A stretch of 64,000 nucleotides of DNA. Source: a virus. The notes under the pieces are model-generated. The model worked only from the letters and a program-made list of their open reading frames with translations. It did no database searches and was not told the origin of the DNA. The stretch is from the IMG/VR virus record IMGVR_UViG_3300042399_002267. One strand, 5' to 3'. Shown one piece after another: positions 7,846-33,806 of this stretch (position 1 is its first letter; each line of letters starts with the position of its first letter). Position numbers and translations under genes: made by a program.

Positions 7846-7909
7846 TATTTTTAAGAAAAAAAAATCAAAGAAAAATAATTAATAATTTTTTTGAAAAGGG
7901 ATAAATATT

Positions 7910-8530: not shown

Positions 8531-8540
8531 GGAGAATAAT

Positions 8541-8783
8541 ATGGAAGATTTGATCAAAATGTCTTATGACGAACTTGAAGTGCTTAGAAATGAATATGAA
8601 GTTTCTTACGTTACATTCCAAGACAAGCATCGTGAAGTTGTCTATGCTATAAGAGAAAAGCAAAGAATCGAAGATTTACATGCTAAACTTTCTGGTGTTT
8701 CTTTAGAAGATCTTGAAAAAATCAAGAACCAGATTTTATCTGCAGCTGCAGTTGTATCTGAAGAAGTAGTAAGATTAGACTAG
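8541..8783 (+). CDS. Small coiled-coil hypothetical protein (start re-assigned to 8541)
   Basis: AAGGAG RBS precedes the ATG at 8541. The track start at 8475 overlaps the upstream gene. Confidence 0.7.
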   Translation: MEDLIKMSYDELEVLRNEYEVSYVTFQDKHREVVYAIREKQRIEDLHAKLSGVSLEDLEKIKNQILSAAAVVSEEVVRLD

Positions 8784-8800
8784 TCATCTGATAGTCTTTC

Positions 8801-8840
8801 AAAGCCTAATAATATTTATTTATTATTAGGCTTTTTTCTT
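8801..8840 (+). terminator. Intrinsic terminator
   Basis: AAAGCCTAATAATA-tttatt-TATTATTAGGCTTT is a perfect 14-bp stem followed by TTTCTT. Confidence 0.85.
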
Positions 8841-8852
8841 ATTAATGCAGAA
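8828..8852 (+). promoter_or_regulatory. Candidate late promoter AGG-N17-CAGAA
   Basis: AGG 8828-8830, 17 nt, CAGAA 8848-8852, 21 nt before the ATG of the 1802-aa gene. Confidence 0.55.
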
Positions 8853-8873
8853 AGAATATAAAGAGATACGACT

Positions 8874-17164: not shown

Positions 17165-17574
17165 TTTTCACAACCATGGATTTTACAAGTTTTACATGAA
17201 TGGCAAAGAGAATTATTGATCCAGTAAGATGTACTTATCAATATTCCACCGGATACAAGAATCAAAGTATAAATATCAAAGTGAAATTCATGTTCGTGAT
17301 TATAATGGTTATGTGCCATTTTTCCAATCACAAATAATGCAGTGCCTATTCCTAATAGACCTAAGGCTTTCAAAGATCTATGCTTCTTGTATCCAAAACA
17401 CAAATTTGACAAATTTAGAAACAAAGAAATTATTAGCAATGCCCATTCTACAGGCTCAGTAACAAATAATGAGATGCTTGCAATTGGAAAAACTATAACA
17501 AAAATTGGCATTACAGCACAATGAATTGCGCATGCTAATGTTGCATATGTACCCAATAAACCTAAATTTTTCAT
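17161..17574 (-). CDS. MerC-domain membrane protein (metal transport/binding)
   Basis: LGLLGTYATLACAIHCAVMP is the MerC-type CxxHC signature. Four hydrophobic segments, GYKKHR, a His-rich loop HNHYNHEHEFH and a C-terminal CHSCKTCKIHGC. Confidence 0.8.
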   Translation of the reverse strand: MKNLGLLGTYATLACAIHCAVMPIFVIVFPIASISLFVTEPVEWALLIISLFLNLSNLCFGYKKHRSLKALGLLGIGTALFVIGKMAHNHYNHEHEFHFDIYTLILVSGGILISTSYWINNSLCHSCKTCKIHGCEK

Positions 17575-19346
17575 TTTTGTATTAAAGACTTAGCATGATT
17601 ATGAACTTTGGTGCTCATATTGTCAACAACTTCTTTGCCAGATTCAACAAGAGAAGAAAGAAGCTCAATATTCTCCGAATGATAATCAGATTCAATACTT
17701 ATTCTCAAATCTTCAAGTTCCTTAATGTCATCTGATTTTAAAACTTTTGTATCTAAAAGTTCAAGCAACTGAATCTTCAATGATGTAAGCCAATCTCTAA
17801 GCAATGATAATTGCTTAAATCTTTCATCAGAAATTTTATTTTCTTCAGCATCTTGTAACATTCTGGTCATATCTTCATTAGATAACGAACCTGATAATAC
17901 CATAACTTTTTCATTTTTAGATTGTTCATCAACAGCTTTGACTGTTACTATTCCATCAGCATCCACTTCAAAAACAACATCTATTTTAGGAATAGATCTT
18001 CTCATTGAGGGGATATTTTCAAGCTTAAACTCTCCAAGATAATGATTGTGTTTCGTCTGAGGTCTCTCTCCTTGAAAAACCTTTACATCTACAGATGTTT
18101 GATTATCTTCAGCAGTGGTGAATATTTCCTCAAACTTAGTAGGCACTTGAGAATTTCTTTTAATCATAACATTCATAACTCCACCTTGAGTTTCAATTCC
18201 TAATGAAAGTGGGGTTACATCTAAAAGAAAAATATTTTTATCTGATTTTCCAGATAGAACAGATGCTTGAATAGCAGCACCCAAGGAAACAGCCTCATCT
18301 GGATTGATTGATTTATTTGGTTTCTTGCCAGTCCATTCTTGAACTTTTTTAAAAACATATGGAATTCTAGTTGATCCACCAACAAACACAACTTCATTAA
18401 TTTCGCTAAATGAAAGATCTGCATCTAAGATTGCTTGCATAATACAATCTTTTGTTTTATTCAAAGGTATTTCAAGACTATTTTCAAATTCTTCTTTGGT
18501 TATTACTACAGATAGATTGACGGGCTGTCTGTTTCTAAATGCAAAATTGGAAATATTTACAGTGATTTTTTCTAACTGAGACAAGGTTTTTTTTGCTTTT
18601 TCTGCTGCAGTCAATAATCTTGCTAATTGACTTTCATCTAACATTTCTAATGAATGCTGGTTATAATTGTAATCATATTGAGAATTAAACTTATTCAGGA
18701 TTAATTTAGCTAATGATTTGTCAAAATCTGCTCCACCTAAATTAGTGTTTCCAGAAGTTGAAAGAACATGAAAATCGCAACCATCAGAAAGATTGAGAAT
18801 AGTAACATCAAATGTACCACCACCGAGATCGTACACCAGTATCTTAGACTCATTTTTCTTATCCAGACCGTACGCCAATGCTGCAGCAGTTGGTTCATTG
18901 ATAATCCTTAAAACTTTCAATCCAGCCAATTCACCTGCTGTTTTGGTAGCAACCCTTTGGTCGTTATTAAAATATGCTGGAACAGTAATAACAGCTTCAG
19001 TGATGTTATCACCTAAATAATCTTCAGCATCTCTTTTTAATTTCTTTAAAATTTCAGAAGATATCTCGATTGGAGACATTAAAATAGATTCATCAAAAAC
19101 ATATGTTTTATCAAAACCTTTTGACATTTGTCTCTTTACTAATCTAACTATATTTTTTGCATTGGTAGTTTCATATTCAACTGCTAACGAGCCAACTAAA
19201 TTGTTTCCTGACTCATCAATAGCAAAAACCGAAGGAGTAATTCTGTCACCCTCGCAATTAGGAATGACTTCTGCTACGCCTTCGGCATTTACATGTGAAA
19301 TAACACTGAAAGTACTTCCTAGATCTATGCCTACACTTAAACCCAT
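17571..19346 (-). CDS. dnaK: Hsp70/DnaK chaperone
   Basis: GIDLGSTFS, AVITVPAYFN, RIINEPTAAALAYG, VYDLGGGTFDV, VGGSTRIP, linker LLDVTPLSLGIET and EDNQTSV..VFQGER. 591 aa with a short C-terminus. Confidence 0.95.
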   Translation of the reverse strand: MGLSVGIDLGSTFSVISHVNAEGVAEVIPNCEGDRITPSVFAIDESGNNLVGSLAVEYETTNAKNIVRLVKRQMSKGFDKTYVFDESILMSPIEISSEILKKLKRDAEDYLGDNITEAVITVPAYFNNDQRVATKTAGELAGLKVLRIINEPTAAALAYGLDKKNESKILVYDLGGGTFDVTILNLSDGCDFHVLSTSGNTNLGGADFDKSLAKLILNKFNSQYDYNYNQHSLEMLDESQLARLLTAAEKAKKTLSQLEKITVNISNFAFRNRQPVNLSVVITKEEFENSLEIPLNKTKDCIMQAILDADLSFSEINEVVFVGGSTRIPYVFKKVQEWTGKKPNKSINPDEAVSLGAAIQASVLSGKSDKNIFLLDVTPLSLGIETQGGVMNVMIKRNSQVPTKFEEIFTTAEDNQTSVDVKVFQGERPQTKHNHYLGEFKLENIPSMRRSIPKIDVVFEVDADGIVTVKAVDEQSKNEKVMVLSGSLSNEDMTRMLQDAEENKISDERFKQLSLLRDWLTSLKIQLLELLDTKVLKSDDIKELEDLRISIESDYHSENIELLSSLVESGKEVVDNMSTKVHNHAKSLIQK

Positions 19347-19368
19347 AATCTAGGATTATACAGTTTAA

Positions 19369-19725
19369 CTATTTTTCTGAGTCATCCTCATTAAAAACTG
19401 ATCCATTTGGCTTTAGACCTTCGTAAAGATTTTTCAATGAATCTTTAGAATCAAGTTTTTTTCTAAAAGAAATCATTTCAGTTTTAGTGATAGGAGTATT
19501 TGTAGATGCACTATTATCCTTCGGTAATGAATTTTTGTAATCATTGACCATAGAGTATGTTTGTCTAACTGCAAAAGTATCTTTACACTTAGGGCATCTC
19601 ATGATTGAATACACTTCCAATTCATTGTTTGGAAGCCACCCTAAATGAGAGTCACGGGTGAAGTGAGTTTTGCAGTTTCGATTAAGACAGTGTTTGGGCT
19701 TTCCCACTATAGTCTGATGGAACAT
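19369..19725 (-). CDS. Putative Zn-finger protein
   Basis: CLNRNC and CPKC pairs, with a GGAGGT RBS. Confidence 0.6.
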   Translation of the reverse strand: MFHQTIVGKPKHCLNRNCKTHFTRDSHLGWLPNNELEVYSIMRCPKCKDTFAVRQTYSMVNDYKNSLPKDNSASTNTPITKTEMISFRKKLDSKDSLKNLYEGLKPNGSVFNEDDSEK

Positions 19726-19833
19726 GAGACACCTCCGAAAAAGAAATGATATGTTATTATATTACACATCTTGAACAATAATTCTTGATACAAATGAAGT
19801 AAAAATCAGAAATATTGCAGTATAATAGATATA

Positions 19834-19870
19834 ACACCACTGATGGTATTAGTCAGTGGTGTATTTTTAT
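19834..19870 (+). promoter_or_regulatory. Leader hairpin plus T-rich tract downstream of TATAAT (attenuator-like)
   Basis: TATAAT at 19821-19826, then ACACCACTGA-9 nt-TCAGTGGTGT (perfect 10-bp stem), then ATTTTTAT. Confidence 0.55.
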
Positions 19871-19884
19871 GCCAGGAGGATATT

Positions 19885-19956
19885 ATGAGATTACTAAAAG
19901 ATATCGAAGATTTGTTCACTCATGTTCTTTTTACTTTAATTAAGAACGAATATTAG
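19885..19956 (+). CDS. Unannotated 23-aa small protein MRLLKDIEDLFTHVLFTLIKNEY
   Basis: Strong AGGAGG RBS just upstream of the ATG, an upstream -10 and a downstream hairpin. Below the ORF-track size cutoff. Confidence 0.5.
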   Translation: MRLLKDIEDLFTHVLFTLIKNEY

Positions 19957-19963
19957 AATAAAT

Positions 19964-19990
19964 ATAAACTGCAACGGCGCAGTTTATTTT
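19964..19990. terminator. Likely bidirectional terminator between the small ORF and the helicase
   Basis: ATAAACTGC-aacggc-GCAGTTTAT is a 9-bp stem with A/T-rich flanks overlapping the helicase stop. Confidence 0.65.
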
Positions 19991-21696
19991 AATTCGTGAA
20001 ACTCCCATGCTCTTTCATTTTTGTATACTTTTTTACGCATATTACTGTGTGTTTTGAGATTTTTGTGTTCTAGCATGAAATCAACTATAATAGCGTCAGA
20101 TTTGCCATTTTTTACCGAATCTTCAATATCTTTTCCAACACATCTTAATACTCTTCCAACTTGCTGATATGTGGTAACTGAAGACTGATTTGTTCCAGCA
20201 AGAATTAATGATGATATCCTTGGAGCATCTACTCCAACATTTGCCCATTGTGTAGCAATCAATATAATTTCATTATTTTCAACAGCATTTAGCATTCTTC
20301 TTCGATAATTTTTTTCTTCAGCTGTAGGGTCTACATCTCCCTTATCACCACCAGGCACAAAAACAGCATCTTCAATCATTCCCTCAAGAATATCCCCATG
20401 CTCTCTTCTTTCAACAAGAATAAGAGTTGGTCTACCATCAGATTTAAATCCTTCAGCAAATTGTTTAATTCTAAAATTTCTTTCCCAATTATGAACTATA
20501 TTTTTAGAATAAACTTCAGGATAAGAAGTTGCTGTATGAGATTCAAATATTTTGCACATAAAAATCTTTGGTGGTACTAAATAGCCTCTTTCAATCAAAT
20601 CACTAGCACTTACTTCAATTATTTTTTGACCCAAAGTACCTTCAATTCTAATTTCTTGATTATCTGTGCGCCATGGAGTTGCTGATAAGCCCAATTTATA
20701 ATATGCATTGATTGCATTTTTTCCAAGTTCTTCAGTCACTTCTGCAGCCAAATGAGCTTCGTCAATGATAAATGCTGAACAAGTCTCTATAAGTTTCCTT
20801 ACTTGCGATTTTTGATCGATTATTTCTTGTCTTCTTTGTAATGCTGTAAGGGTTTTCTTGTATGCTGCAAGTTCAACTTTGATTAAACTATTAATTGATC
20901 TTTCAGATGAGTTTTCAGGCAGTTTTTTCTTCGCTTGATTGAGAGCTGATTTGTAAATTATTTCTGCTTCTTCAAATTCTTTTTGCAATTGTTGAGTAGA
21001 TTTACTTTGACCATCTCCATTGTCATCATTGACAATTTTTTTACTGCTTTCTAAATATTTTTTATTAAATGCTATCAATGCAGTTTGGTAGGTGATAACA
21101 TTTACTCCATCAAAATTTATATCGCATTTTCCACCACCAGCAATACCTACTTTGACAGAACTATTTTCCAGTCTTAGATATTTTTCAAACTCTCTTTGGG
21201 TTTGATTTAATAATTCAATTGCTGGAACAATAAATACAACTGGTTTTACTTGAATATTTGCAAATATTTGACAAGATGTCATTGTCTTGCCTGCACCAGT
21301 GCACAAAGACAGCATACCTCGCTGGTATTTTTTTGCTAATACAGCAGATTGAGATTGATAGTCTCGGAGAGATTTGCCCTGAAAATCACATTCAACTGGG
21401 AAATTTTGTTCAGGCTTCTTTCTCATATCAACAAATTTATATTTGACAGCCAGTTCATCAAATAAGCCTTTGACACGCAAAGAAAGTCCCGTTGGGAAAC
21501 ATTGAAATCTTTTGTTATATAATGAGATTTTTCCATCCCAAGCGCCTTGCTTAAACTTTTGAGACCACTCAGCAGATGGAACAATATAGGATAACTCTTG
21601 CCTTAAAGCTTCATTGTAATTGTATGGTAACTTGTTTTGTGCATCTTCAGTATTTAGCACAATACATTTATCGTTATATACTTCAATCAACAGCAT
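19984..21696 (-). CDS. Superfamily 2 DNA helicase (UvsW/XPB-like)
   Basis: Motif I LCTGAGKT, II IIDEAH, III LSATPWR and VI QQVGRVLR, with a charged helical insertion before motif II. Confidence 0.9.
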   Translation of the reverse strand: MLLIEVYNDKCIVLNTEDAQNKLPYNYNEALRQELSYIVPSAEWSQKFKQGAWDGKISLYNKRFQCFPTGLSLRVKGLFDELAVKYKFVDMRKKPEQNFPVECDFQGKSLRDYQSQSAVLAKKYQRGMLSLCTGAGKTMTSCQIFANIQVKPVVFIVPAIELLNQTQREFEKYLRLENSSVKVGIAGGGKCDINFDGVNVITYQTALIAFNKKYLESSKKIVNDDNGDGQSKSTQQLQKEFEEAEIIYKSALNQAKKKLPENSSERSINSLIKVELAAYKKTLTALQRRQEIIDQKSQVRKLIETCSAFIIDEAHLAAEVTEELGKNAINAYYKLGLSATPWRTDNQEIRIEGTLGQKIIEVSASDLIERGYLVPPKIFMCKIFESHTATSYPEVYSKNIVHNWERNFRIKQFAEGFKSDGRPTLILVERREHGDILEGMIEDAVFVPGGDKGDVDPTAEEKNYRRRMLNAVENNEIILIATQWANVGVDAPRISSLILAGTNQSSVTTYQQVGRVLRCVGKDIEDSVKNGKSDAIIVDFMLEHKNLKTHSNMRKKVYKNERAWEFHELK

Positions 21697-21701
21697 AAGT
21701 T

Positions 21702-21730
21702 ATTATATATTCTTAAAAAGAAAAAGGCAA
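21702..21730 (-). promoter_or_regulatory. Sigma70-type, probably leaderless, promoter of the helicase
   Basis: Minus strand reads TTGCCT-17 nt-TATAAT-5 nt-ATG, with no RBS. Confidence 0.65.
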
Positions 21731-21746
21731 GATTTTATCTTGCCTT
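21715..21746 (-). terminator. Intrinsic terminator ending the protease-dnaJ-holin operon
   Basis: Minus strand reads AAGGCAAGAT-AAA-ATCTTGCCTT followed by TTTCTTTTT. Confidence 0.8.
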
Positions 21747-21787
21747 GAAATGAAAAAGTTCAAATTTGATGTTTAGTTTAATTAAAA

Positions 21788-22222
21788 TTATCTAACATTC
21801 ATTGCATTGAATTTATTTACACCAAGAGAAATTTCTGATTGTTTTTTACCAATGAAGATATCAAGAGTTGATGATACTAGTTGAGTTATATGCTGAACAT
21901 CATCATCTGTGAGAAGAACACCTTTGTTTACAGCTGCCAATCTTACATATCTAACAAACTGATCAACCCCATCTTCTCTTGAAAACTCACCATCTTGAAT
22001 TTTTTTCAAACCTTCAATCCAAATATCAACTAGGGCATCAGCTTTTGAACCTAATTTGCTACTCAACATCATCTTAATTATTTGCAATGTATTTAATACT
22101 ACTGCGCTACTTGAACGCAGTTTTGCAAGATAAAACAATGCAACACTAACAATACTAAAAGTTATTAAATAAAATAATATAGTATCTGCAGAGTTGGAAA
22201 AAATATGATTTAAAATTTGCAT
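21788..22222 (-). CDS. Membrane protein, possibly LL-H-type holin
   Basis: Single N-terminal TM segment (ILFYLITFSIVSVALFYL), followed by a soluble helical part with KGVLLTDDDVQHITQLVSSTL resembling LL-H holin C-termini. Confidence 0.4.
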   Translation of the reverse strand: MQILNHIFSNSADTILFYLITFSIVSVALFYLAKLRSSSAVVLNTLQIIKMMLSSKLGSKADALVDIWIEGLKKIQDGEFSREDGVDQFVRYVRLAAVNKGVLLTDDDVQHITQLVSSTLDIFIGKKQSEISLGVNKFNAMNVR

Positions 22223-22223
22223 A

Positions 22224-22448
22224 TTAGCAATCCTTTGCTATAGTTTCATCATCATCATCTGAATCATTGATATCTAAGGTGATATCTCTTGTAGTATCTA
22301 CATCAATAGCATCTTTAATTTTTGCTTCAGCCCAAACTAGATTTGCATCTTCTGGCTGTTGATCTACAGATGCTGTTACATTAACTTCATCCCCATCTGC
22401 ATCTGTAAACTTTTCAATTTTGCCTGTCGCTCTCTTAATCATACTCAT
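22224..22448 (-). CDS. Small acidic hypothetical protein
   Basis: 74 aa, Asp-rich, tightly packed between dnaJ and the membrane protein gene. Confidence 0.65.
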
Positions 22449-23431
22449 AATAAGTTTTTCTCCTCTCTTGATTTTACATATTCTTTCAATGTGTTCAATT
22501 CCAACTCACTTATATTTTCAGGGATTTTATACAAGAATTGCAAGTATAAATCAGCATTGCTAGTTTCATTTACAGGCAATCCCTTTCCTGAAACTTTGTG
22601 TTTTTGACCATGAGCTATATTTGATTTTAATTTAAATTTTATATTACTTCCATCGATGTGATTAAATGTAAAATTAAATCCAACTATTGCTGCTACTGGA
22701 TCAATATTTTTTATGTATGTTAAATCACCATTATTATCTATTTTATAGTTATCAACGTCTTTTAAACCTATGTTTAATAATAAATGACCTGGTGGCTGAT
22801 TAGGATCTATTTGACTACCACGCTCATTGAGAACAATTGTTTTAAGGACTTGTCCCTTTTTAATTAAAACTTCAAACATTTCTTGCTTGTCAATATTTCC
22901 ATTGCAATTACATTTTTCACAATTTTGTTTAAATGTTTTTCCTCTTCCTAAACAATTACCACATGGTCCAAAATTATGCTCAAAGAAAAAAGGTCCCTGT
23001 TGAATTGTTTGTTTATTTTGCCCTGATCCCATACAGATCATACAAACTTCTACTCCTAATCCACCATGCCCATTACATTTATCACAGTAAACTTTTCTTG
23101 TATACGCTATATTTTTAATACAATCATTGAAAGCTTCTTTTAATGATAAACCTACATCAAGATACATTGGCACATTTGAATTTTGTTGCCTGAAATTAAA
23201 ACCCCTAAACATTTCAAAGGGGTCAAATGGTTGCTGATATTGTGGCTGTGGTTCAGGCTTAGGATTTAAAATATCTTCATATGCCTGACTTAATTCTTTG
23301 AACTTTTCTTCGGCTCCAGATTCTTTATTTACATCTGGATGATATTTTTTTGCTAATTTTCTATAAGCTGATTTGCAGTCATCTAAAGAAGAGTTATATG
23401 GAACACCTAAAACGTCATAAGGATTTGGCAT
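22445..23431 (-). CDS. dnaJ: Type I DnaJ (Hsp40) co-chaperone
   Basis: J-domain with HPD, a short Q/F linker, four CxxCxGxG-like repeats and a C-terminal substrate-binding domain (GKGLP...DLY). Confidence 0.93.
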
Positions 23432-23443
23432 GTAGAATTTATA

Positions 23444-24118
23444 CTAAATTTTAGTAAGTAATTCTCTTATTTTATTTGAAGGGCAGGCAGAGTTTTCTCC
23501 AATACCTACATCTGAGTGTTGACCAGTAACTCCCATGATCAGTCCATATACTTTTCCATCAGTGCCAATAACCATACCACCAGAAGAACCTTCCAAAATA
23601 TCTGCATCAATAAATATAATATCTCTCCATGCAGGAGTGGGAGCTGATTCACCTAAAGTTTGATGAATATTTGTAACTCTTCCAACAGTGGCTGTATCAT
23701 GAAATCCTTCAGGTGATCCAATTACTGCAACAATGTCTCCAACTTCAATTGTATCAGAATCTCCTAGCTCGACTTGAGGAACTAAACTTGCAACTTGCGG
23801 AGCTGATAAAATTCCAGCATCAAAATTTGGTTCAGAAATAATTGTTTGAGCTTTGAAATAATTTTTATTATCAAATGTAATATCTACATCTAATTGAATA
23901 TCTGGTGGAACAACATGCGCTGCTGTGACAATAATTCCATCGCCAATATGAAATCCACTACCTGACCAATGTTTATCACCATGATGAACATATATTGAGC
24001 AAGAAGACTGAAGACCCATTTGTATTATTTTTTTTACTGGATCTTCATATTTATCTTGATTTTGAGATTGTGCAAATTTTAATTGCCAATCTAAATAGTT
24101 TGTATCTAACTTGAACAT
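23444..24118 (-). CDS. Trypsin-like serine protease (S1/HtrA-like, no PDZ)
   Basis: SGSGF, TAAHVV, DAGIL and GSSGG give a complete His-Asp-Ser triad. LGDSD..EVGDIVAVIGSP.GF..TATVG is an HtrA-like pattern. Confidence 0.9.
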   Translation of the reverse strand: MFKLDTNYLDWQLKFAQSQNQDKYEDPVKKIIQMGLQSSCSIYVHHGDKHWSGSGFHIGDGIIVTAAHVVPPDIQLDVDITFDNKNYFKAQTIISEPNFDAGILSAPQVASLVPQVELGDSDTIEVGDIVAVIGSPEGFHDTATVGRVTNIHQTLGESAPTPAWRDIIFIDADILEGSSGGMVIGTDGKVYGLIMGVTGQHSDVGIGENSACPSNKIRELLTKI

Positions 24119-24119
24119 A

Positions 24120-24581
24120 TTAATTTATTACTTTGTAAAGTATATCTTCCTTGTTTACGGAACCAAATCTTCTACTGTCGTCAGAATTAGACCAGTTGTC
24201 ACCTAAAACATAAAAACAATTAATTGGAACTTTGACAATAAAACATTGATTTCTGCTATATTCAGGGTCTACCATGTATCTGACTAAGTTTGGTCCATAA
24301 AGTAAATCTATTTCAGCTTTTTCAACATTTAGAACATTATAATATTGCTGACCACCTACCATAATGATTCTTTTGATTATGATTTCTTCATTATCATTTT
24401 TTAATACAATAACATCTCCAATTTTATAATCATTGGATTTTATTGCAATCAAAATATTCCCACTATGGTAAGTTGGTTCCATGGATTTTCCAACTACTAC
24501 TACAAGCTTGTATGGTTGTAAATGCATTAATAATGCAATTATCAAACCAATAAATCCGATAACATATGACTTTTTACTCAT
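24120..24581 (-). CDS. lepB: Signal peptidase I (S26)
   Basis: N-terminal TM anchor, GKSMEPT (catalytic Ser), IIKRI (catalytic Lys) and YVLGDNWSNSDDSRRFG. Confidence 0.9.
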   Translation of the reverse strand: MSKKSYVIGFIGLIIALLMHLQPYKLVVVVGKSMEPTYHSGNILIAIKSNDYKIGDVIVLKNDNEEIIIKRIIMVGGQQYYNVLNVEKAEIDLLYGPNLVRYMVDPEYSRNQCFIVKVPINCFYVLGDNWSNSDDSRRFGSVNKEDILYKVIN

Positions 24582-24651
24582 AGCACTTCCTCCTATTTTA
24601 GAAAAGAAGAGCTAAAGTTCATTTTTTTATTTGCTTTTGCTCTAAATGATA

Positions 24652-25596
24652 TTAAACTGTTCTCCAGTCAATGTTGCAGAACTTCGGAACTCCAAAACCC
24701 CAATTCGCTACATCACCATTAATAATTTTACCAGTACTTACATACTCTGCATGATCACAAACTATATCAATAGCTTTTAACATATCAATATAATTATTGA
24801 TTTTAGGAGCTGAAGGGTCTGATTTAGCAAATGATTTTAACAATGCACAGATGCCTGTCATGAATGGTGCTGCCTGACTAGTTCCTGACATTTTTGCATA
24901 TTGATTGTTAGTAAATGTTGAGAATATATCAACACCTGGTGCAACACTATCAACTGTATTATCTCTTGAAGAAAAACCAGCCATATTTCCATTAGCATCC
25001 AAAGCTGCAACTGCTATAACTTCATCATATCTTGCTGGATAATTAACTATTTTTCCATCATTTCCAGCAGCAGCAATAATGATGATACCTTTATTTGTAG
25101 CTTCGATAATAACATCATGTAAAGATTGTGGCGGAGCTCCTGGAGCTCCTAATGACATGTTGATAATGTCTACATTGCCCATTCTAATACATTCTCTTAT
25201 TGCTTCTTCTACCGCTGTGTAACTTCCACCACCATCATCATCAAGAACTTTCATAGGAATTATCTTGCAATCAGGAGCAATTCCTACACATCCATCACTA
25301 TTGTCTCTTGCAGCAATAATTCCAGCTACGTGAGTTCCATGACCAGATTTTTTATCTTCATGGGAATCATTTCTACTGAAATTCTTTGCGTCAAACCATT
25401 GTCCTTGCAAATCTACATGGTCTGAAATACCAGTATCAAGAACCGCAACAACTACGTCTTTACCTTTTGTAATCTTCCAAGCTTCTTCAATTAAGCATGC
25501 ATCTATACCCCAATTTTTAGTTTGAGATAATGATAAAAAATCTTGGATATCATAAAATTTTTCATCGTCAGGAATGAATTGTATTCTGTCGCTCAT
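24652..25596 (-). CDS. Subtilisin-like S8 serine protease
   Basis: VAVLDTG, HGTHVAG, AAAGN and SGTSQAAP. No signal peptide and only a very short N-terminal extension. Confidence 0.92.
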   Translation of the reverse strand: MSDRIQFIPDDEKFYDIQDFLSLSQTKNWGIDACLIEEAWKITKGKDVVVAVLDTGISDHVDLQGQWFDAKNFSRNDSHEDKKSGHGTHVAGIIAARDNSDGCVGIAPDCKIIPMKVLDDDGGGSYTAVEEAIRECIRMGNVDIINMSLGAPGAPPQSLHDVIIEATNKGIIIIAAAGNDGKIVNYPARYDEVIAVAALDANGNMAGFSSRDNTVDSVAPGVDIFSTFTNNQYAKMSGTSQAAPFMTGICALLKSFAKSDPSAPKINNYIDMLKAIDIVCDHAEYVSTGKIINGDVANWGFGVPKFCNIDWRTV

Positions 25597-25626
25597 TGTA
25601 TTTCTCCGAACAGTTATATTGATTTT

Positions 25627-25651
25627 TTCTATTTTTGATAAATAAGCGCCT
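25627..25651 (-). promoter_or_regulatory. Candidate late promoter AGG-N17-TAGAA
   Basis: Minus strand AGG-cgcttatttatcaaaaa-TAGAA, upstream of the GGAG RBS of the subtilisin gene. Confidence 0.55.
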
Positions 25652-25652
25652 G

Positions 25653-28600
25653 CTATATAATATTAACTATTTGACTTTCTGACAGTAATCCATAATATTC
25701 ACCATCGTAAGGTGTGATGGTAAAATATATTGCTTGACCTGTTGACAAAAGTGAAGAACCAATACTTGAACCTGTAGACAAAAGTGAATTTGAGACCAAA
25801 TCATACCATTTGACTATAGATTGATCAGAAGAATTGTCAGCATCAGTAAAAGTATAATATGCAGACAAAACACTTGTCCTTATAGTTGAATTATTTACAA
25901 TTGAATTTGTTGATTTTATTTGAACATCTGAAACATATGGAATGTTTTTATCAACCAAAGTAAACGAATCAGATGAATAAACAATTCCAGTTTTAAATCC
26001 ATCATATGGTTGAACTTCTACTTTAACAATGTCACCAGATTCAAAATAATTATTAGCATTATCTAAATCTAAAACTCTTTGTGATAATCTGTTAGCATAA
26101 TTAGGATAACCATTGTTATTATTTATTTCAACAAATCCAGACCCTTTATTTATATACCAAGTAGTTGATGAGCCTTGATCATTGATATCAACATTTGAGC
26201 TAATATCATAATTGACATACATTTGATTTTGTATACTAGGAGAATCATTCGTCACTTGACCATACGCTAAAAGATTAACTTTATTTGATAATAATTGTGG
26301 CGTTGGAACAGACTTATATTCAGAATATTTATTTAGATTCTTAAGAGTGGTGTACTGTAATCCAAAATTGATTGTGTTAGTGCCAGTAACATACTTTTCT
26401 ACTTTTAATCCAATTCTAAAATATTTTGAATTTTGAATATAAATAGTAACAAGATCACTATTTGATAATTTTTTATCAAAAACTACACATCCATTTTTTC
26501 TGTCTAATATATATGTATTTCTTACAATAGAATTATTTACATATATGACAACATCACTATCGTAAACCCATGATCCATTTCTTGCAAAATATGTTTTGTA
26601 ATCAGATGTAGATGTTGATTCACCAAATGCTATGTATCTGTTTCCATCTGCATCAAATTGAATTGATTTTTGCCTAGATGGAAAAATACCATTTCTGCTT
26701 GCAGAGATTAATTCATAATCATTCCAATTTGTTGAATTGCCTCTACATATGCCCCAAGAAACATTGATATTTTCATTATTTGAAATATTTTCTGCTAATA
26801 TATATTCATCTAGAATTCCATCAACTTCATATGCATCAGTAAAATAATACTTGACTGCGGGTGTAGTTTCAACATAATACAGTGAAGTAACACTTGGTAA
26901 AATTCGATCAGTTCCATCCCAGCCTTCAACTAAATTAATTCTAAATTGAATATTAGTAATAAATTTTTTCAAATTATAAGCTGTAGCACTGGATAAAGTT
27001 ATCCAAGATGAATATTTTTTTCTATCAGTGGAAAATCTAAACTCTACCAAACACGATGAACCTGAAGGCTGAGTAAATGTAGAATTAACTGAAGAAATAT
27101 ATTTAGCATCAGAAAAGTCAATATCTCTTGTCCAGGTGCCTCTAAATATTTCATTAGCACCATCGTGTAATAATAAATCTTGTATATCAGACCAATCATT
27201 AGCAGATTGTGCAATATAATATTGACCATTAGAATTAACAACTACTGGCAAATATTTAGCTTGAGATGTTGAATCATTGGTTGAAATAAACAATATCTTG
27301 AATCCCAAACCTGACCAGAATTGACTAGTATATTTTAAATAATTATCTACATCAATAGATTCAAAGTCTGAATTGTCTGTTAATACAATCAATAGAGGAG
27401 TATAAGATTTTGCCCATGTTTCTAACAAAAATTTACTTGCATTTTCACTGTTTGTGATATCAGCAGACGTACCGTCCCAATCATTCAAAAGAGTATTTGA
27501 ATCATAAGTGCTTTGCAAATCAGTCAATCTTAAAGCTGATATATCGTCAAGATAATTAACAATGCTATCAACTGATGAAGTTCCTAAATTCATTTGAACT
27601 ACAGAATCTTGATTCAATGAATTCATACACAAGTTAAGACCTTCTTGTAAATTTTTTGATATACCCTTAGCATTCAATTCATTGATGATTAATTGAACAT
27701 TATTGTATACAGTGGTAAATCTGGATGTCTTTTCTTTTGTAGTATCACCTAACATCCAAACATCAAATGCTGAGAAAGGATATTCTGTTACACCAACAGT
27801 TCTTGTAGTTCTATTCGAAATTTCAGATAAAAGATTACCCAGCCCAGTTTTATATATTGATGATGAGAAATTGCTCATCGAAGTAGTATCGTCAATCAAT
27901 ACTGATACTAAGAATTTGGAATCTAATGTCAGAGAACCATCATCTTTAGACAATGTGCCTAAATGATACCCTTCGTCCCAGTTATTAGTGCCTGAATAAT
28001 AGCCTATTGCAACATTTGTTTCAGATGGTGTTGACAGACCTGCGTAATGAATTTTGAAATAAAAATCATAATCTTCACTTCCGTATAGATTAGCCCAAGA
28101 CCCACTATATTTATATATAGCTTTGCCACTTGTAAATGCAGTATTAGATTTTTTCCATCTCATTACTGAAATACAACTCGAAGATAGAGATTCAGCAATG
28201 ACCAATGCTAAAGTAGTACTTGCAGTCACTGAATAATTAAATTCAAAATTGATAAAATCTTTTCCAACAATTTGTGAAGGAGAGTATGTTGTTGTAGATG
28301 TTGCTACCAGTGTATTTGGTAAACCACCAGACACACTATATAAGTACGCTCTTACTATATTGCCAGTTAAAGAATTTTGATAAAATGGATCAACAATCGT
28401 ATTATCCACATCTAAAAATACACTAACTTTATCTACTGTATCATTAGAACTTCTAGATATAAATGTTTGAGCTAAAAGATTTCCAGCAGTTAGTACGTCT
28501 GAAAATCTAACACTGTTTGTCGGGTGTGAATCAAACAAAACTGGTTCGGAACCATCTGCAGTTTGATTGCCAGATTGATACCAACTATCTCCATCATCGA

Positions 28601-31600
28601 TAGAGTACCAAATACCATTAGAAGTACATGCAATAAGAGCATTTACATCTACAGTTGATAATCCATCCGTGTATGTCGTAGATTCAATTTTCAAATCATT
28701 GACAACTAAAAACTTATTATTGAATCTTTCTGCTGGATAAAAACTATTTCCCTCATCAAAAGATCTATAAACGCCTCTATCAGTACCGATAAATATTTTA
28801 GACTTTCCAGGTTTTATTCCATCTTCTGAATCTGAAGTCGTTAAAACAAAACAATTACAATCGATTCCATCTAAATATTTAGTTTCAATTTCGTAATTAA
28901 TAGAGTTATCAGGGTAACACCATTGCCAATTTTTAATTTTCAACAAACCATTATCAGTTAACACAAACAATGATGTTGGATCCAATTTAGCGGCAGGTAT
29001 TTTTGGCGTTTTAAGTGGTCTAAAGCCTGCTTTGTAATATTTTATATCCGATGGCTTATTAGAACCTAACATTTCTCTAGATATCATTGCTGGAGAAAAT
29101 GTAGAAGTATTGGCAGAATCAATGACCGAATATATTCCATCATTTGTGAATAATAATATTGTATCAATGTAAGATTGAGTATTTGATATTACTTTTATAA
29201 TATTTGTTTTGAGCTGACCATACACTTCGATGCTACTGTCAATATTAGCATTATCAGACTCGAAAGAATTAGTATTGGAAATTGTTCTTACAAAAGAAAA
29301 TCCATCCGACTTACCATAAGATGAATAATTGAAATTACCCCAAACACCTTCATCATAAGAAAACTGCTGCTGAGTAAAAATATTACTTTGAATCCATGTG
29401 CCAGTAGAGCTTCTTGACCATTGTCCTTTTTCAGTTCCTACAATATAAGTGTCATCAAATAATCTTTTAAGATAATTTACAGTTTTGGAATTGTCTAGTA
29501 ATGTTTTTTGAATCCAAGTGCTACCATTGTATTCCCATATACCTTTATCTGTAGCGACAATTAATCCATTCCCATCTTTTGAAAAATTTTCAATTGCATA
29601 CACAGTGACAGGATCTGATATATCTTCAGTTGGGGCAAATTCTGTTCTAAATGTAATTTCTGAGTTTGTGTCGTCAAGCACTGAATTATTATCAAAATCA
29701 GAAATTAATTTGATATTTTTTAAGCCTCTTGAATCTGATTGAGCAAATGGTGCTGAAGGCAATACATCAAATATTCCACTTACATTATCTTCCAAAGAAA
29801 GTGCAAGCTGCAAAGTATTAAGATTATTCAAAGAAGTTAGATTGTATGGTAACTTACTCTTGATTTTATATAGATCAGTTTCTATAGATGGTGATATGCC
29901 AGATTTAACAGAATAAACTTCGGATCCAGAAATGAAAGTTATATTGGAAACATCTGTTCTTGCAAAATTCAAAGTAACTTCAACTGGATTTTTAGTGTTA
30001 TCAATTGAATCCACATAAAGAATTTCTTCATTAACTCCATCAGTTACTAATAAAATGTCAGTAGAACTTACAACAGTTGATGTTAAATACAAAATCATAT
30101 CGTTGGGCGAAAAATCTTGGAATAATTTTGATACAGCAATGTTAGATTTTTTATTTACAGACAAGATTTCATTATGATTTCGTTGCCCAACATTTGATAG
30201 ATATGGATTATTTCTTGCTATAGAAACTTTGACATTGTTTATATATTGAAGGCTTATTGAATTGATAAATCTTATTAGTCCAATTGTATTATCTGTTGTG
30301 TAAGGAATGTTAGATGGTATAGAATTTATATAAACAGTAACTCTTGGTTTGTTCAATACAGAATAATTCCAAGGTTCTATATAAAAATCTTTATATTCTC
30401 TTTCATATAAAAATACTTCTCCAAAATCTTGAGAAGAAGTAAACTCTACAAGTTGAAAATTGTTATAAAAATTATAATTTGAAACAATGTTTGAATTAAT
30501 ATCAAATACAGCCAACTCATCATTTGATAAAATCATATTTTCAATTCTTATCCAAGGCTGAGAATCTATGTTGGCTACATTGTTTATTGATTCCCACAAA
30601 AAGTCAGTGTTTTGATATAAACCATTTGTCGTAGATACAATAGTTATCCCATCTGAAGTTGAATTATTATAACTTGTAATAGAATTAACATTTCCCATAT
30701 ATGGAGCGTCAAATATTAATTCTTTTGTAGATGGTAATTGTCCATATGCTCCAGATTCAGTGATAAGAGCTAGACCTTCAGAATGTGCAATAATATATTG
30801 TTTAGTTACCTGATTTGAATCTTTTTCAATAACAGTTTTTATCTGCGGGGTAACTCCATAAGTGGTTGTTGACACATTGTAAATAGCAGCATAATAAATA
30901 TCCCAGATTATATTGCTAGTACCCAATACATAAGAACTTTGATATCTAATGAACCATGCTGAATTTGCATTCGTATTGCCATTTTCAACTATTGCATATT
31001 TACAATAAATTATTTCAGAGCTTGAATTTAAATCAGAAGCTCTAGACCACGCACTAACAGATGCAATATATATTCCATTTTCACTTGCATTGGTTTGGTT
31101 TTTGACTAAAACTCTGTCACCAGCAGAAATTGCATATCCATCTATTGTGCTGAGACCAGACAATGTAATATTTTCTACAGTTGCACAAATACAATTGGTG
31201 TATGAACCAGCATTGATAGAAAAAGGTAAATCCCAATATTTATTTGATTCAAAATCATTATATTGAGCTGTATGGGTTATATATACTGTTGAATTATTCC
31301 ACCAAATAATATTATTTTTATCAACATTATTTGTACCAGATTTGATCCAAGTGATTCCCCTAACTGTGCCAGAAAATTTCTCTTGAATACTTTTGTATGT
31401 TCCAGCATAAAGACCATTAGATCCAACATAAATAGATCTATCGTAAAGTACTAAATCTTGTTCTCCTGCAACAATATCCCTGTTTTCTGTGACAATCTCA
31501 GTTACAGTATTGACATTACTAATTGAAGATATAATATTTCCACTAATGTCTTTTATTTCATTTACTTTAGAATATTCCCAATTTTCATCAGCTGTATTTT

Positions 31601-33806
31601 CTAAAATTCTTGCTGAATAAAGACCACTATCTGTAACAGCATATAAATATGTATAGTATTCAAAAATATTTACATCAGTTTGAATTTTATCAGTGGAAAC
31701 ATAAAAATCATTTACAAATATTTTTGATCCATTTGAATCTAATGGTGATTTTTGTATGTTCCAAGATTTGGATAATAAGCTAGTTTTATAAATATTTCCA
31801 AAATTTGTCAATACATAAGTTTCTTGAAAATAATTGGTTAAATCAGATGTCAAAAGATTGTCTAAAATTTTAGATGGAAATCCATAATCAGAATAATAAT
31901 TGGAAACGTTTTTTATATTTTTGAAAGTATTATCACTTTGGAACATTCCATCATTAGTTCCATAAATAAATGTATTCAAATTTAAAGATTGGTATACACT
32001 TATGACATTGGTATTATATTGTAAATCAGATAATGTATTTTCTGGGTAATAGAATTTTCTTCCAGGAGTTTGAACTAAATATTTACTTGGACTAAAATTT
32101 GCTGTAGTGTTAAAAACAAAATCTGAGTTGTGGTCAAGATTTTTTATCTTTGATTGACTTAAAGTACCTTTGCTAAATTTAGATGCATCAATATTAATTT
32201 TAGAACCATCTAAACTATTGATAACTTCGTTGCCAATTGAATCAACAATCACTTCTACATCTTGAACATTGTAAGAAGCAATTGATGGTACAACTGAACT
32301 AAATACAATACTTCCTGAGTCTGGATCTAATGTGTAGTAATTATCTTGCTGAACTAAAGATAATATTTGCACTTCTCCAGGCAAATATTGAAATCTGTTC
32401 CATGAAAAGTTTTTATAGACAGAAGAGCTTGAACCATTTCTATATTCTAAAGTTCCATCAGTCAATTGGTAATAAACACTATGAGATAAAGATCCAGTAA
32501 TTTTATTACCACTAGAATCAATGATAAACAATGATTTTTGATTTACATTTAAAAGAGTGATAGATAATTTCTTATTTGATTCAATACTATTCTTTAAAAA
32601 TATTTTGCAAGGAGTTGACTCAAAGTCAATCACATAGTCATTTTCAGAAAGTAAAACATTATCTAAATAAACTTTTGGTATTCCATAAGTAGATGAATAA
32701 ACAAAATCTGTATCATCGCTATTCTTTAGGATGAAAATTGTTGATGCTAAATCAGTTACAGAATTGTAATTATTTACACAATTAACAATGGTAGATGTTG
32801 ATAAGTTAATTTGTGTTGGATTTGAAATATTTCCTAAATGTTTATGAGTCAAATAACTTTTTCTTAATGACTCTTGAAACTCTCCAGCTAAATCACTTAA
32901 GTTTTGTTTTCTGTCTTCATAAGATATGGTATTGACTGTTGGAAAATTATAAAGTATTGAGGTAGACCCGCATGAAACTGTAGCAAGATAAGTTACATTA
33001 TTTCTAAGGTCATAATTTGAATCAGGAGGGAAAGGACAGGATATTTTGCATATCTCATCCTTTTTAGTACCAATTAAAGATTCTGCCCAAACAAAATATT
33101 CATTGGACTTGGTCAATCTAAAATAATTATTTACTTCAGTTTTTGCAGCAAAAGAATCTACAATTCCGTAACCGGGAAGTACTTTAATACATTGCTTAAA
33201 TGCATCGTCAAAATATAAACTTGTAGTACCTAATGTAAACGCAATTCCAGAGATAGTACCTAACCAAACTGTTGATGTATTAGCAGATCCACCAGAAACA
33301 TAAACTACAAAATTTGAGTTATATTTTGTTGAAGAATCTAGTACAGAGTCTCTTGTCCAAGTTCCATTTGTTCCAGAACCTAAAGTTGATACGTAATAAA
33401 CACCATTTTGCGATGCCGTAGATTGACTTTTGACTAATATTTTGTCATTTACAGAAAGACTAATGCCATCTAAAGTATTAGGTGCTCCACCGGAAAGGCT
33501 CACATTAGTCGTAGTTCCAGCTGCACAAATATTTTGAGATGAAAAACTCAACCCTAATGAAACAAATCTTTGAGCAGTGTCACTTGAAAAATTATTTAAG
33601 TAGTTTGATATTAAGCTTAATTGATCAGATCTGTTTTCAGTTAATTTTTCAACTGTCCAGCCATCAATTACTCCAGAACCAACAAAATCAAACGAACGTT
33701 TAAGTTCGTTTTCAATTGTGAGCATATTTTCATAATCAAAACCTGGAAACCATTTATCGCCAAATTTTGAATATAAAAAATTATATACAGATGTCCTATC
33801 AGCCAT
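25653..33806 (-). CDS. Giant (2717 aa) tail-fibre/baseplate-like protein
   Basis: The N-terminal attachment-like region is shared with the 1229-aa gene. It has two VLVK(N/S)Q...NG(I/V)Y modules, beta-propeller segments with Asp-boxes (YRSFDEG, YSIDDGDSW), a vWA-like segment, and two C-terminal Ig-like repeats (PYDG). Confidence 0.65.
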   Translation of the reverse strand: MADRTSVYNFLYSKFGDKWFPGFDYENMLTIENELKRSFDFVGSGVIDGWTVEKLTENRSDQLSLISNYLNNFSSDTAQRFVSLGLSFSSQNICAAGTTTNVSLSGGAPNTLDGISLSVNDKILVKSQSTASQNGVYYVSTLGSGTNGTWTRDSVLDSSTKYNSNFVVYVSGGSANTSTVWLGTISGIAFTLGTTSLYFDDAFKQCIKVLPGYGIVDSFAAKTEVNNYFRLTKSNEYFVWAESLIGTKKDEICKISCPFPPDSNYDLRNNVTYLATVSCGSTSILYNFPTVNTISYEDRKQNLSDLAGEFQESLRKSYLTHKHLGNISNPTQINLSTSTIVNCVNNYNSVTDLASTIFILKNSDDTDFVYSSTYGIPKVYLDNVLLSENDYVIDFESTPCKIFLKNSIESNKKLSITLLNVNQKSLFIIDSSGNKITGSLSHSVYYQLTDGTLEYRNGSSSSVYKNFSWNRFQYLPGEVQILSLVQQDNYYTLDPDSGSIVFSSVVPSIASYNVQDVEVIVDSIGNEVINSLDGSKINIDASKFSKGTLSQSKIKNLDHNSDFVFNTTANFSPSKYLVQTPGRKFYYPENTLSDLQYNTNVISVYQSLNLNTFIYGTNDGMFQSDNTFKNIKNVSNYYSDYGFPSKILDNLLTSDLTNYFQETYVLTNFGNIYKTSLLSKSWNIQKSPLDSNGSKIFVNDFYVSTDKIQTDVNIFEYYTYLYAVTDSGLYSARILENTADENWEYSKVNEIKDISGNIISSISNVNTVTEIVTENRDIVAGEQDLVLYDRSIYVGSNGLYAGTYKSIQEKFSGTVRGITWIKSGTNNVDKNNIIWWNNSTVYITHTAQYNDFESNKYWDLPFSINAGSYTNCICATVENITLSGLSTIDGYAISAGDRVLVKNQTNASENGIYIASVSAWSRASDLNSSSEIIYCKYAIVENGNTNANSAWFIRYQSSYVLGTSNIIWDIYYAAIYNVSTTTYGVTPQIKTVIEKDSNQVTKQYIIAHSEGLALITESGAYGQLPSTKELIFDAPYMGNVNSITSYNNSTSDGITIVSTTNGLYQNTDFLWESINNVANIDSQPWIRIENMILSNDELAVFDINSNIVSNYNFYNNFQLVEFTSSQDFGEVFLYEREYKDFYIEPWNYSVLNKPRVTVYINSIPSNIPYTTDNTIGLIRFINSISLQYINNVKVSIARNNPYLSNVGQRNHNEILSVNKKSNIAVSKLFQDFSPNDMILYLTSTVVSSTDILLVTDGVNEEILYVDSIDNTKNPVEVTLNFARTDVSNITFISGSEVYSVKSGISPSIETDLYKIKSKLPYNLTSLNNLNTLQLALSLEDNVSGIFDVLPSAPFAQSDSRGLKNIKLISDFDNNSVLDDTNSEITFRTEFAPTEDISDPVTVYAIENFSKDGNGLIVATDKGIWEYNGSTWIQKTLLDNSKTVNYLKRLFDDTYIVGTEKGQWSRSSTGTWIQSNIFTQQQFSYDEGVWGNFNYSSYGKSDGFSFVRTISNTNSFESDNANIDSSIEVYGQLKTNIIKVISNTQSYIDTILLFTNDGIYSVIDSANTSTFSPAMISREMLGSNKPSDIKYYKAGFRPLKTPKIPAAKLDPTSLFVLTDNGLLKIKNWQWCYPDNSINYEIETKYLDGIDCNCFVLTTSDSEDGIKPGKSKIFIGTDRGVYRSFDEGNSFYPAERFNNKFLVVNDLKIESTTYTDGLSTVDVNALIACTSNGIWYSIDDGDSWYQSGNQTADGSEPVLFDSHPTNSVRFSDVLTAGNLLAQTFISRSSNDTVDKVSVFLDVDNTIVDPFYQNSLTGNIVRAYLYSVSGGLPNTLVATSTTTYSPSQIVGKDFINFEFNYSVTASTTLALVIAESLSSSCISVMRWKKSNTAFTSGKAIYKYSGSWANLYGSEDYDFYFKIHYAGLSTPSETNVAIGYYSGTNNWDEGYHLGTLSKDDGSLTLDSKFLVSVLIDDTTSMSNFSSSIYKTGLGNLLSEISNRTTRTVGVTEYPFSAFDVWMLGDTTKEKTSRFTTVYNNVQLIINELNAKGISKNLQEGLNLCMNSLNQDSVVQMNLGTSSVDSIVNYLDDISALRLTDLQSTYDSNTLLNDWDGTSADITNSENASKFLLETWAKSYTPLLIVLTDNSDFESIDVDNYLKYTSQFWSGLGFKILFISTNDSTSQAKYLPVVVNSNGQYYIAQSANDWSDIQDLLLHDGANEIFRGTWTRDIDFSDAKYISSVNSTFTQPSGSSCLVEFRFSTDRKKYSSWITLSSATAYNLKKFITNIQFRINLVEGWDGTDRILPSVTSLYYVETTPAVKYYFTDAYEVDGILDEYILAENISNNENINVSWGICRGNSTNWNDYELISASRNGIFPSRQKSIQFDADGNRYIAFGESTSTSDYKTYFARNGSWVYDSDVVIYVNNSIVRNTYILDRKNGCVVFDKKLSNSDLVTIYIQNSKYFRIGLKVEKYVTGTNTINFGLQYTTLKNLNKYSEYKSVPTPQLLSNKVNLLAYGQVTNDSPSIQNQMYVNYDISSNVDINDQGSSTTWYINKGSGFVEINNNNGYPNYANRLSQRVLDLDNANNYFESGDIVKVEVQPYDGFKTGIVYSSDSFTLVDKNIPYVSDVQIKSTNSIVNNSTIRTSVLSAYYTFTDADNSSDQSIVKWYDLVSNSLLSTGSSIGSSLLSTGQAIYFTITPYDGEYYGLLSESQIVNII

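Follow-up and report, generated by a model that had tools for sequence, protein, structure and literature searches.

A conserved cluster of three serine proteases, DnaJ and two small proteins next to giant virion genes of uncultured relatives of Bacillus phage G, and its possible role in protein homeostasis

Gene content and organization of the locus

The 64,000-nucleotide stretch of viral DNA analysed here (IMG/VR record IMGVR_UViG_3300042399_002267; hereafter the window) harbours on its minus strand, between positions 21788 and 25596, six co-oriented and tightly packed open reading frames (ORFs) of 314, 153, 224, 328, 74 and 144 amino acids (aa). They code for a subtilase (S8), a type I signal peptidase (S26), an HtrA-like protease domain (S1), a divergent DnaJ, an acidic protein and a single-pass membrane protein. 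The intergenic gaps amount to 70, 1, 12, −4 and 1 nt in this order, the negative value denoting an ATGA overlap, and agree with a preliminary description of the sequence, which had noted six closely spaced genes and viewed them as a protease–chaperone cassette behind a late-type promoter. Related contigs that carry the same block belong to uncultured phages of 300–480 kb which are related to Bacillus phage G. The features of the locus are the following:

25627..25651, minus strand: promoter-like motif AGG-N17-TAGAA, immediately behind the stop codon of the 2717-aa gene, ~30 nt ahead of the S8 start
24652..25596, minus strand: S8 subtilase, 314 aa (PF00082)
24582..24651, minus strand: S8–S26 spacer element, conserved intergenic sequence
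24120..24581, minus strand: type I signal peptidase S26, 153 aa (TIGR02227, PF10502)
23444..24118, minus strand: HtrA-like S1 protease domain, 224 aa (PF13365, Trypsin_2)
22445..23431, minus strand: divergent class-A DnaJ, 328 aa (J domain, zinc finger, C-terminal domain)
22224..22448, minus strand: acidic protein, 74 aa, translationally coupled to dnaJ by the ATGA overlap
21788..22222, minus strand: single-pass membrane protein, 144 aa, with an N-terminal transmembrane (TM) helix
21715..21746, minus strand: intrinsic terminator closing the unit (10-bp stem at 21746–21724, then a T-run)
25653..33806, minus strand: 2717-aa virion-type protein immediately upstream (PHROG tail-fibre and virion Ig-like domains)
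17571..19346, minus strand: phage Hsp70/DnaK in the next-but-one unit (PF00012, E 1e-165)

Proteins of the window were aligned with five orthologues and later with more than 25. The ratio of nonsynonymous to synonymous substitution rates (dN/dS), determined in two independent pairs of relatives, lies between 0.04 and 0.24 for all six genes. This shows purifying selection on the whole set, and the two unnamed ORFs of 74 and 144 aa are therefore real genes. A giant protein of the 2717-aa type adjoins S8 in all relatives, and no terminator is located between this gene and the six-gene unit. On the other side, genes for an UvsW-like helicase, a 118-aa zinc-ribbon protein, the Hsp70, a MerC-like protein and a DUF151-like protein follow on the same strand.

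Promoter-like motif, terminator and internal spacer

The geometry of the AGG-N17-TAGAA motif resembles that of sigma-H type promoters of Bacillus, and motifs of the AGG-N17 type also precede other virion genes in the window. Over the entire window the exact pattern occurs at chance level (3 found vs. 2.4 expected), as does the degenerate form AGG-N17-HWGAA (16 found vs. 16.3 expected), and this count at first told against the promoter proposed in the preliminary description. Five of the 16 degenerate copies, however, are located at most 80 nt upstream of gene starts, where about 0.3 would be expected; this enrichment is not an independent test, since the motif had been defined after inspection of these regions. 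The orthologous upstream windows of 22 distinct loci served as an independent test. In 15 of them, a relaxed form, AGG-N18-20-GAA, precedes the S8 orthologue; 1.4 would be expected, none of 1000 shuffles gave more than 6, and the consensus is approximately AGGAWT...ARGAAT. The objection was thus overturned by the positional and the orthologue tests, and the element ahead of S8 is accepted as conserved and promoter-like, in its relaxed rather than its exact form. Because the motif stands ahead of virion genes, the element presumably acts late, and the unit is probably expressed late.

The strong terminator described downstream (21715–21746) was likewise recovered, with its 10-bp stem and T-run, and its position is conserved. 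In all five relatives compared, a hairpin of other sequence occupies the same position, directly followed by a TATAAT box (often TGnTATAAT) serving the helicase gene. This gene, in contrast to the protease unit, appears to be read from a promoter of the host type. Across 21697–21746 of the window and in the relatives L003, L004, L005, L006 and L051, the terminator hairpin, the −10 box and the start of the UvsW-like helicase gene are kept in position, while the sequence of the stem varies.

Within the unit, a 40-nt sequence (AGAGCAAA...AACTTTAGCTCTTCTTTT) of the S8–S26 spacer is retained in L003 (8794–8830), L004 (8794–8830), L005 (8764–8794) and L006 (8763–8793), where the flanking proteins are just 40–55 % identical. 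Its components are a T-run and a 5–6-bp stem with an A-rich loop; it overlaps the S26 ribosome-binding site and can pair with the Shine-Dalgarno sequence of that gene; folding of the spacer gave no significant structure (z −0.76). Its function could be that of a leaky terminator, of a processing site or of translational control. The six genes are accordingly bracketed by a conserved promoter-like motif and a terminator, with a weak conserved stem plus T-run lying internally between S8 and S26.

The serine proteases S8 and S1

Profile searches and residues invariant among orthologues corroborated the earlier assignment of three proteases from unrelated families (S8, S26 and S1) with intact catalytic motifs. 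The S8 protein matches Peptidase_S8 in the Pfam profile search (E 1.3e-56), and its catalytic residues D54, H86, N179 (oxyanion Asn) and S240 are invariant in orthologues. Neither a signal peptide nor an I9 prodomain was found. Among solved structures, those of subtilisin DY, thermitase and intracellular serine proteases come closest. Large Bacillus phages commonly carry S8 proteases, and those of Goe8, Tsamsa and FADO are 36–42 % identical to the S8 of the window.

With the intracellular subtilisins of Bacillus and Planococcus, S8 shares, besides the missing signal peptide and I9 prodomain, a short N-terminal extension containing x-[IL]-P at residues 7–9. This tripeptide is an invariant F-[IL]-P among the relatives and corresponds, in the alignment, to R-L-I-P in the subtilase of a Herelleviridae phage. 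Intracellular subtilisins possess an inhibitory pro-peptide with the motif [LVI]-[IFLV]-P-[YFH] (PMC6220982). This motif is just half matched by the phage protein: residues 7–10 read F-I-P-D in the window and F-[IL]-P-[DVEI] in relatives, of which positions 2 and 3 fit and positions 1 and 4 do not.

The S1 protein matches Trypsin_2 (PF13365, E 6e-20, Pfam profile search), and its triad H68, D100 and S179 is invariant in orthologues. The S1 profile matches HtrA, DegP and HTRA1 structures, with Mycobacterium HtrA1, Thermotoga HtrA and human HTRA1 as the best entries of the Protein Data Bank (PDB). While the protease domain and the catalytic triad are thus shared with the HtrA/DegP family, the 224-aa phage protein differs from that family in having neither a PDZ domain nor export to the periplasm: no PDZ match, no signal peptide and no hydrophobic N-terminus were found, and the protein ends with the protease domain. 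A PADLOC scan of the unit yielded generic protease-domain matches only.

Instead, S1 has a conserved N-terminal leader. Within residues 15–25, nearly all orthologues carry the motif [KR]-x-[ASG]-Q, which reads KFAQ in the window and KTSQ, KEAQ, RVAQ, RLAQ or RYAQ elsewhere; it is absent just in the contig L109, whose S1 N-terminus is shortened. The motif resembles the proposed head-protease site of this genome, and this resemblance, together with the missing PDZ domain and export signal, would suit a packaged effector. In that case, the N-terminal motif would direct S1, and possibly S8, into the head; after trimming by the head protease, the enzyme would be injected and would attack proteins of the host early during the following infection. 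Several features argue against such a role. The P2 position is often Glu or Thr and P1' may be Ser, which lies outside the proposed code; the S1 of L109 dispenses with the leader altogether; S8 has no such motif; and the motif may be a mere part of a conserved N-terminal helix. Packaging of the proteases is therefore considered rather improbable.

DnaJ, Hsp70 and the acidic 74-aa protein

The fourth gene had been described as encoding a complete type I DnaJ, which its class-A architecture bears out in part. The J domain (PF00226, E 2.9e-18) contains an invariant HPD motif (H31, P32, D33); the zinc finger has four repeats with eight invariant Cys, the fourth repeat in the window reading CEKCNCNG, and scores just below the Pfam cut-off (31.2 vs. 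32.7); the C-terminal domain (PF01556) scores 62.2 vs. a cut-off of 26.6. The Gly/Phe-rich region, in contrast, is nearly free of glycine: residues ~58–90 form a short, poorly conserved segment which is rich in Pro, Gln and Phe and contains a single Gly. The protein also stays below the cut-off of the NCBIfam DnaJ equivalog TIGR02349 (189 vs. 377). Neither a hydrophobic N-terminus nor an export signal was found.

The Hsp70 gene is located 3 kb downstream of the unit, and an Hsp70 was present in 5 of 5 related genomes tested. GrpE was found in none of six related genomes searched, two of which are complete. The phage Hsp70 is the likely partner of DnaJ. Two side observations concern Hsp70 itself: the 300-kb relative G006 possesses two Hsp70 genes (116919–118595 and 254567–256276), and in three genomes the Pfam match of Hsp70 falls into two parts after residue ~73, pointing to a conserved insertion or a divergent segment in the nucleotide-binding domain.

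DnaJ and DnaK of huge phages have been discussed as an aid to folding and assembly or as counter-defence (PMC7824862, PMC12619734). Like the pairs of Lak megaphages, of LR745206/LR756502-type phages and of 'moraphages', the present phage combines a full-length DnaJ with an Hsp70 in a very large genome. It differs from them in that DnaJ sits among three serine proteases and is coupled to an acidic protein, that Hsp70 belongs to a separate unit, that no GrpE was detected in the six genomes and that the Gly/Phe region is reduced.

In every locus, those of the distant contigs L109, L110 and L112 included, dnaJ is followed by the gene for the acidic 74-aa protein, whose dN/dS is as low as 0.05–0.06. 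Conserved are a basic N-terminus (MSM[IV]KRA.G.IE.F) and a C-terminus reading VIAKDC; the protein is predicted to be disordered, and the AlphaFold2 (AF2) model is a low-confidence fold (pLDDT 58). Pfam, PHROGs, NCBIfam and PADLOC gave no match, and Atlas no usable one. In contig L051 (11076–11300), the middle of the protein is swapped for a CxxC...CxxC zinc ribbon, with the MSMIKR start and a VIAKSC end kept.

The type I signal peptidase S26

S26 matches Peptidase_S26 (E 2.5e-18) and exceeds the family cut-offs of signal peptidase I (TIGR02227, 80.9 vs. 47 bits) and of PF10502 (67.1 vs. 22.9). The Ser-Lys dyad of the SM.PT and KR boxes (S33, K70) and the GDN..S.DSR box (G127, D128, N129, S133, D135, S136, R137) are invariant in six orthologues, and structure matches were obtained to the signal peptidases I 4nv4 and 4me8 of the PDB. 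At the N-terminus, Lys-Lys is followed by a hydrophobic TM segment (residues 11–29). By the positive-inside rule, this order of Lys-Lys, anchor and catalytic domain places the active site outside the membrane. Judged by family cut-offs, motifs and anchor, S26 is a genuine type I signal peptidase at the level of its sequence.

In its single N-terminal anchor, its Ser-Lys dyad and its boxes B, D and E, the protein corresponds to the short Gram-positive signal peptidases (Bacillus SipS-like; 4nv4, 4me8). In contrast to these it is phage-encoded, comprises only 153 aa and is just ~30–33 % identical to its nearest cellular kin, from Armatimonadota, Lachnospiraceae and Atribacterota. A scan of cellular genomes with the S26 profile gave, as relatives matching over most of their length, only sequences of 26–33 % identity from mixed phyla, and three short partial matches reach up to 41 %; these relatives give no clue to a donor or host. 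No S26 homologue was found in the complete cultured phage genomes searched, and 50,697 phage records yielded only short fragments resembling bacterial DNA and two unannotated faecal contigs. Since phrase searches of a paper library likewise retrieved no description of a phage signal peptidase, a phage-encoded enzyme of this type appears to be undescribed so far.

The 144-aa membrane protein

The last gene of the unit encodes a protein with a TM helix at residues 15–33, whose charge pattern suggests an N-out, C-in topology. Its family comprises 75 cluster representatives of similar length. The AF2 model (pLDDT 92) consists of one long helix and a three-helix bundle. No match was obtained in Pfam, PHROGs, NCBIfam or PADLOC, and Foldseek searches against BFVD and PDB returned nothing below E 0.09.

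The holin-like character ascribed to this gene in the preliminary description found no support. The window protein has no match to Holin_LLH (PF09682) in Pfam up to E 10, and five of 46 family members have weak, sub-threshold ones (best E 0.0047). An hhalign comparison with LL-H ORF107 gave a probability of 0.6 %. The gene is neighboured by those of the acidic protein and the helicase rather than by an endolysin gene, and the sole lysin-like gene that turned up in a relative, among four lysin families searched, lies ~41 kb away.

A candidate substrate of S26 and a possible role in lysis

A simple hydrophobicity scan of a 316-kb relative revealed a few ORFs with classic signal peptides. One of them encodes a 211-aa protein with an SLT domain, which begins with MQMINIIRILIAFICMLITVSAVKA/KE and is the sole lysin-like protein detected among four lysin families searched, as Amidase_2, Amidase_3 and Phage_lysozyme were not found. 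SLT orthologues in seven more contigs all open with a hydrophobic segment of 12–18 residues. Among the exported phage proteins, this SLT hydrolase, a lytic transglycosylase, is the best candidate substrate of S26, as far as can be judged from its N-terminus. In an unrelated 68-kb viral contig (L124, 8712–10426), genes for a GH108 lysozyme, a 198-aa protein and a 152-aa signal peptidase I (35 % identical to that of the window) are arranged in a row. Together, the signal-like start of the SLT protein and this neighbourhood hint at an envelope or lysis role for S26, and the release of a lysis factor considered initially has thereby gained some indirect support.

Pursued further, these hints lead to a unit devoted to lysis control, in which S26, perhaps with the 144-aa protein, would release or mature a membrane-tethered muralytic enzyme or antiholin and thus set the timing of lysis, the cytoplasmic genes being unrelated neighbours. 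A precedent exists in the antiholin RI of phage T4, whose release requires cleavage by a signal peptidase (PMC8385771). The likeness lies in a phage protein being freed from the membrane in this way; the difference is that T4 uses the host enzyme, whereas here the phage supplies S26 and the substrate is only a candidate. Some SLT proteins do have V-K-A, I-S-A or A-M-S sites behind their hydrophobic start, and the weak Holin_LLH matches in the 144-aa family would also agree with such a role. In several other SLT orthologues, however, position +1 is Pro, or small residues are missing from positions −1 and −3. The SLT gene is located ~41 kb from the protease unit, and two complete, distant genomes have S26 and no SLT homologue. 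The GH108 enzyme of L124 has no signal peptide, and the 144-aa protein is neither similar to the LL-H holin nor matched by a known fold; its charge pattern suggests N-out, C-in. Lysis control as the purpose of the unit is thus regarded as unlikely.

Further exported or membrane-associated proteins of the clade were noted. Close to the SLT gene lie those for a small CxxC protein and for a 151-aa coiled-coil protein that is anchored in the membrane at its C-terminus. This arrangement is conserved in L082 (7551–9528; G001 247551–249528), L128, L129 and L158–L165 and is possibly the actual lysis module of the clade. In L168 (10243–10575) of the complete 441-kb genome G002, a 110-aa ORF with a lipoprotein signal (LAVLSFGVLGC) is located 3.4 kb from the S26 gene, which in this genome lies outside the block; these phages hence also encode lipoproteins, which are substrates of signal peptidase II rather than I. 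In L072 (~7798–9116; G001 47798–49116), a small secreted Gly-rich protein is encoded beside a 311-aa protein with a prepilin-type N-terminus (KAFTLIELLVVIAIIAILAAIL). N-termini of this kind, which are abundant in Planctomycetota and Verrucomicrobiota, are a possible clue to the host.

Conservation across related phages

In IMG/VR, scans with single S26 and S8 sequences retrieved distant or no relatives, and alignment-based scans succeeded. The gene row giant protein–S8–S26–S1–DnaJ–acidic protein–membrane protein–UvsW–zinc-ribbon protein–Hsp70 recurs in more than 27 contigs. The core of S8, S1, DnaJ and acidic protein is adjacent in all 27+ loci, down to identities of 29–46 %, and a complete 479-kb genome has all six genes in place. 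Three distant contigs, namely this 479-kb genome, the complete 441-kb genome G002 and the 46 %-complete L109, were more informative than the close relatives. A nucleotide search of 17571–25596 against cultured phages gave no match.

Proposed function of the unit

Six genes that are conserved together at the far end of the giant-virion-gene block, between a promoter-like motif and a terminator, are tentatively read as one transcription unit which forms a two-compartment protein-homeostasis kit and not one machine; we give this reading somewhat less than an even chance. The division into two compartments follows from the predicted topology: S26 acts outside the membrane while S8, S1 and DnaJ have no export signal, and the two groups therefore cannot share substrates. 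The single system for cleaving tail proteins envisaged in the preliminary description is abandoned for the same reason, since tail proteins assemble in the cytoplasm and the outward-facing active site of S26 places this enzyme outside any such system. What stands of that proposal is a real unit with a promoter-like motif and a terminator of its own, which directly follows the giant genes, has been kept by all related contigs found and has an Hsp70 partner nearby.

The cytoplasmic set would comprise the intracellular-subtilisin-like S8, the PDZ-less HtrA-like S1, DnaJ and its disordered acidic partner, which would be made together with it. DnaJ would pass clients to the phage's own Hsp70, nucleotide exchange being contributed by the host or dispensed with. 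Its clients would be the very large and beta-rich virion proteins produced late in infection, which it may fold or, failing that, degrade or trim. The membrane set would consist of S26 and the 144-aa single-pass helical protein and would act on exported phage proteins, with the SLT-type cell-wall hydrolase as its most promising candidate substrate. Late timing, clients and every substrate of the unit are what we infer.

A number of observations weigh against this reading. In the complete 441-kb genome, S8 abuts S1 and S26 is located 175 kb away beside a P-loop protein, with no lysis- or protease-related genes in its neighbourhood, and in the 46 %-complete contig L109 S26 and the 144-aa gene are both missing from the block. 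The synteny check proposed at the outset thus upheld the four-gene core and not an obligatory linkage of all genes. The entire 64-kb window is collinear with the 316-kb relative, so that synteny alone neither singles out the block nor proves a shared function and indicates only that no genes were lost among close relatives. In ~60 further large viral contigs a DnaJ is present, and none of the proteases is encoded less than 10 kb from it. The cultured relative phage G has none of these genes (PMC12484599), and the kit is consequently dispensable for this virion type. A good A-x-A cleavage site is present in only some of the SLT orthologues, and the leader motif of S1, by its resemblance to the proposed head-protease site, points to packaging instead.

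From the collinearity, the mobility of S26, the missing 144-aa gene and the occurrence of DnaJ on its own, it could also be concluded that no functional unit exists, and that independently useful accessory genes share a transcript just through the frozen gene order of the clade. This explanation is doubtful in view of the tight spacing with its overlaps and 1-nt gaps, of the promoter-like motif and terminator that bracket exactly these genes across divergent lineages, and of the four-gene core that remains unbroken even at the lowest identities. In a bolder version of the two-compartment kit, the phage S26 would control the maturation of exported proteins, above all of the SLT hydrolase, so that the timing of lysis is set by the phage and not by LepB of the host; the S8–S1–DnaJ–acidic protein core would be a triage module for giant virion proteins, and the 74-aa protein an Hsp70/DnaJ cofactor replacing the missing GrpE. 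This extended version is speculative, and we hold it to be improbable as a whole.

Conclusions

Taken one by one, the component families of the unit are known. The novelty lies in their combination, in a signal peptidase carried by a phage and in the two families of small partner proteins. DnaJ and DnaK of phages have been noted before, and here DnaJ shares a conserved unit with three proteases that belong to unrelated clans. The 74-aa and 144-aa families gain a defined genomic context. The unit offers a testable picture of how phages with virion proteins of 1000–2700 residues might handle folding failures. If S26 does process the phage's exported lysin or other secreted proteins, phages would have a further, new means of controlling the envelope of their hosts.

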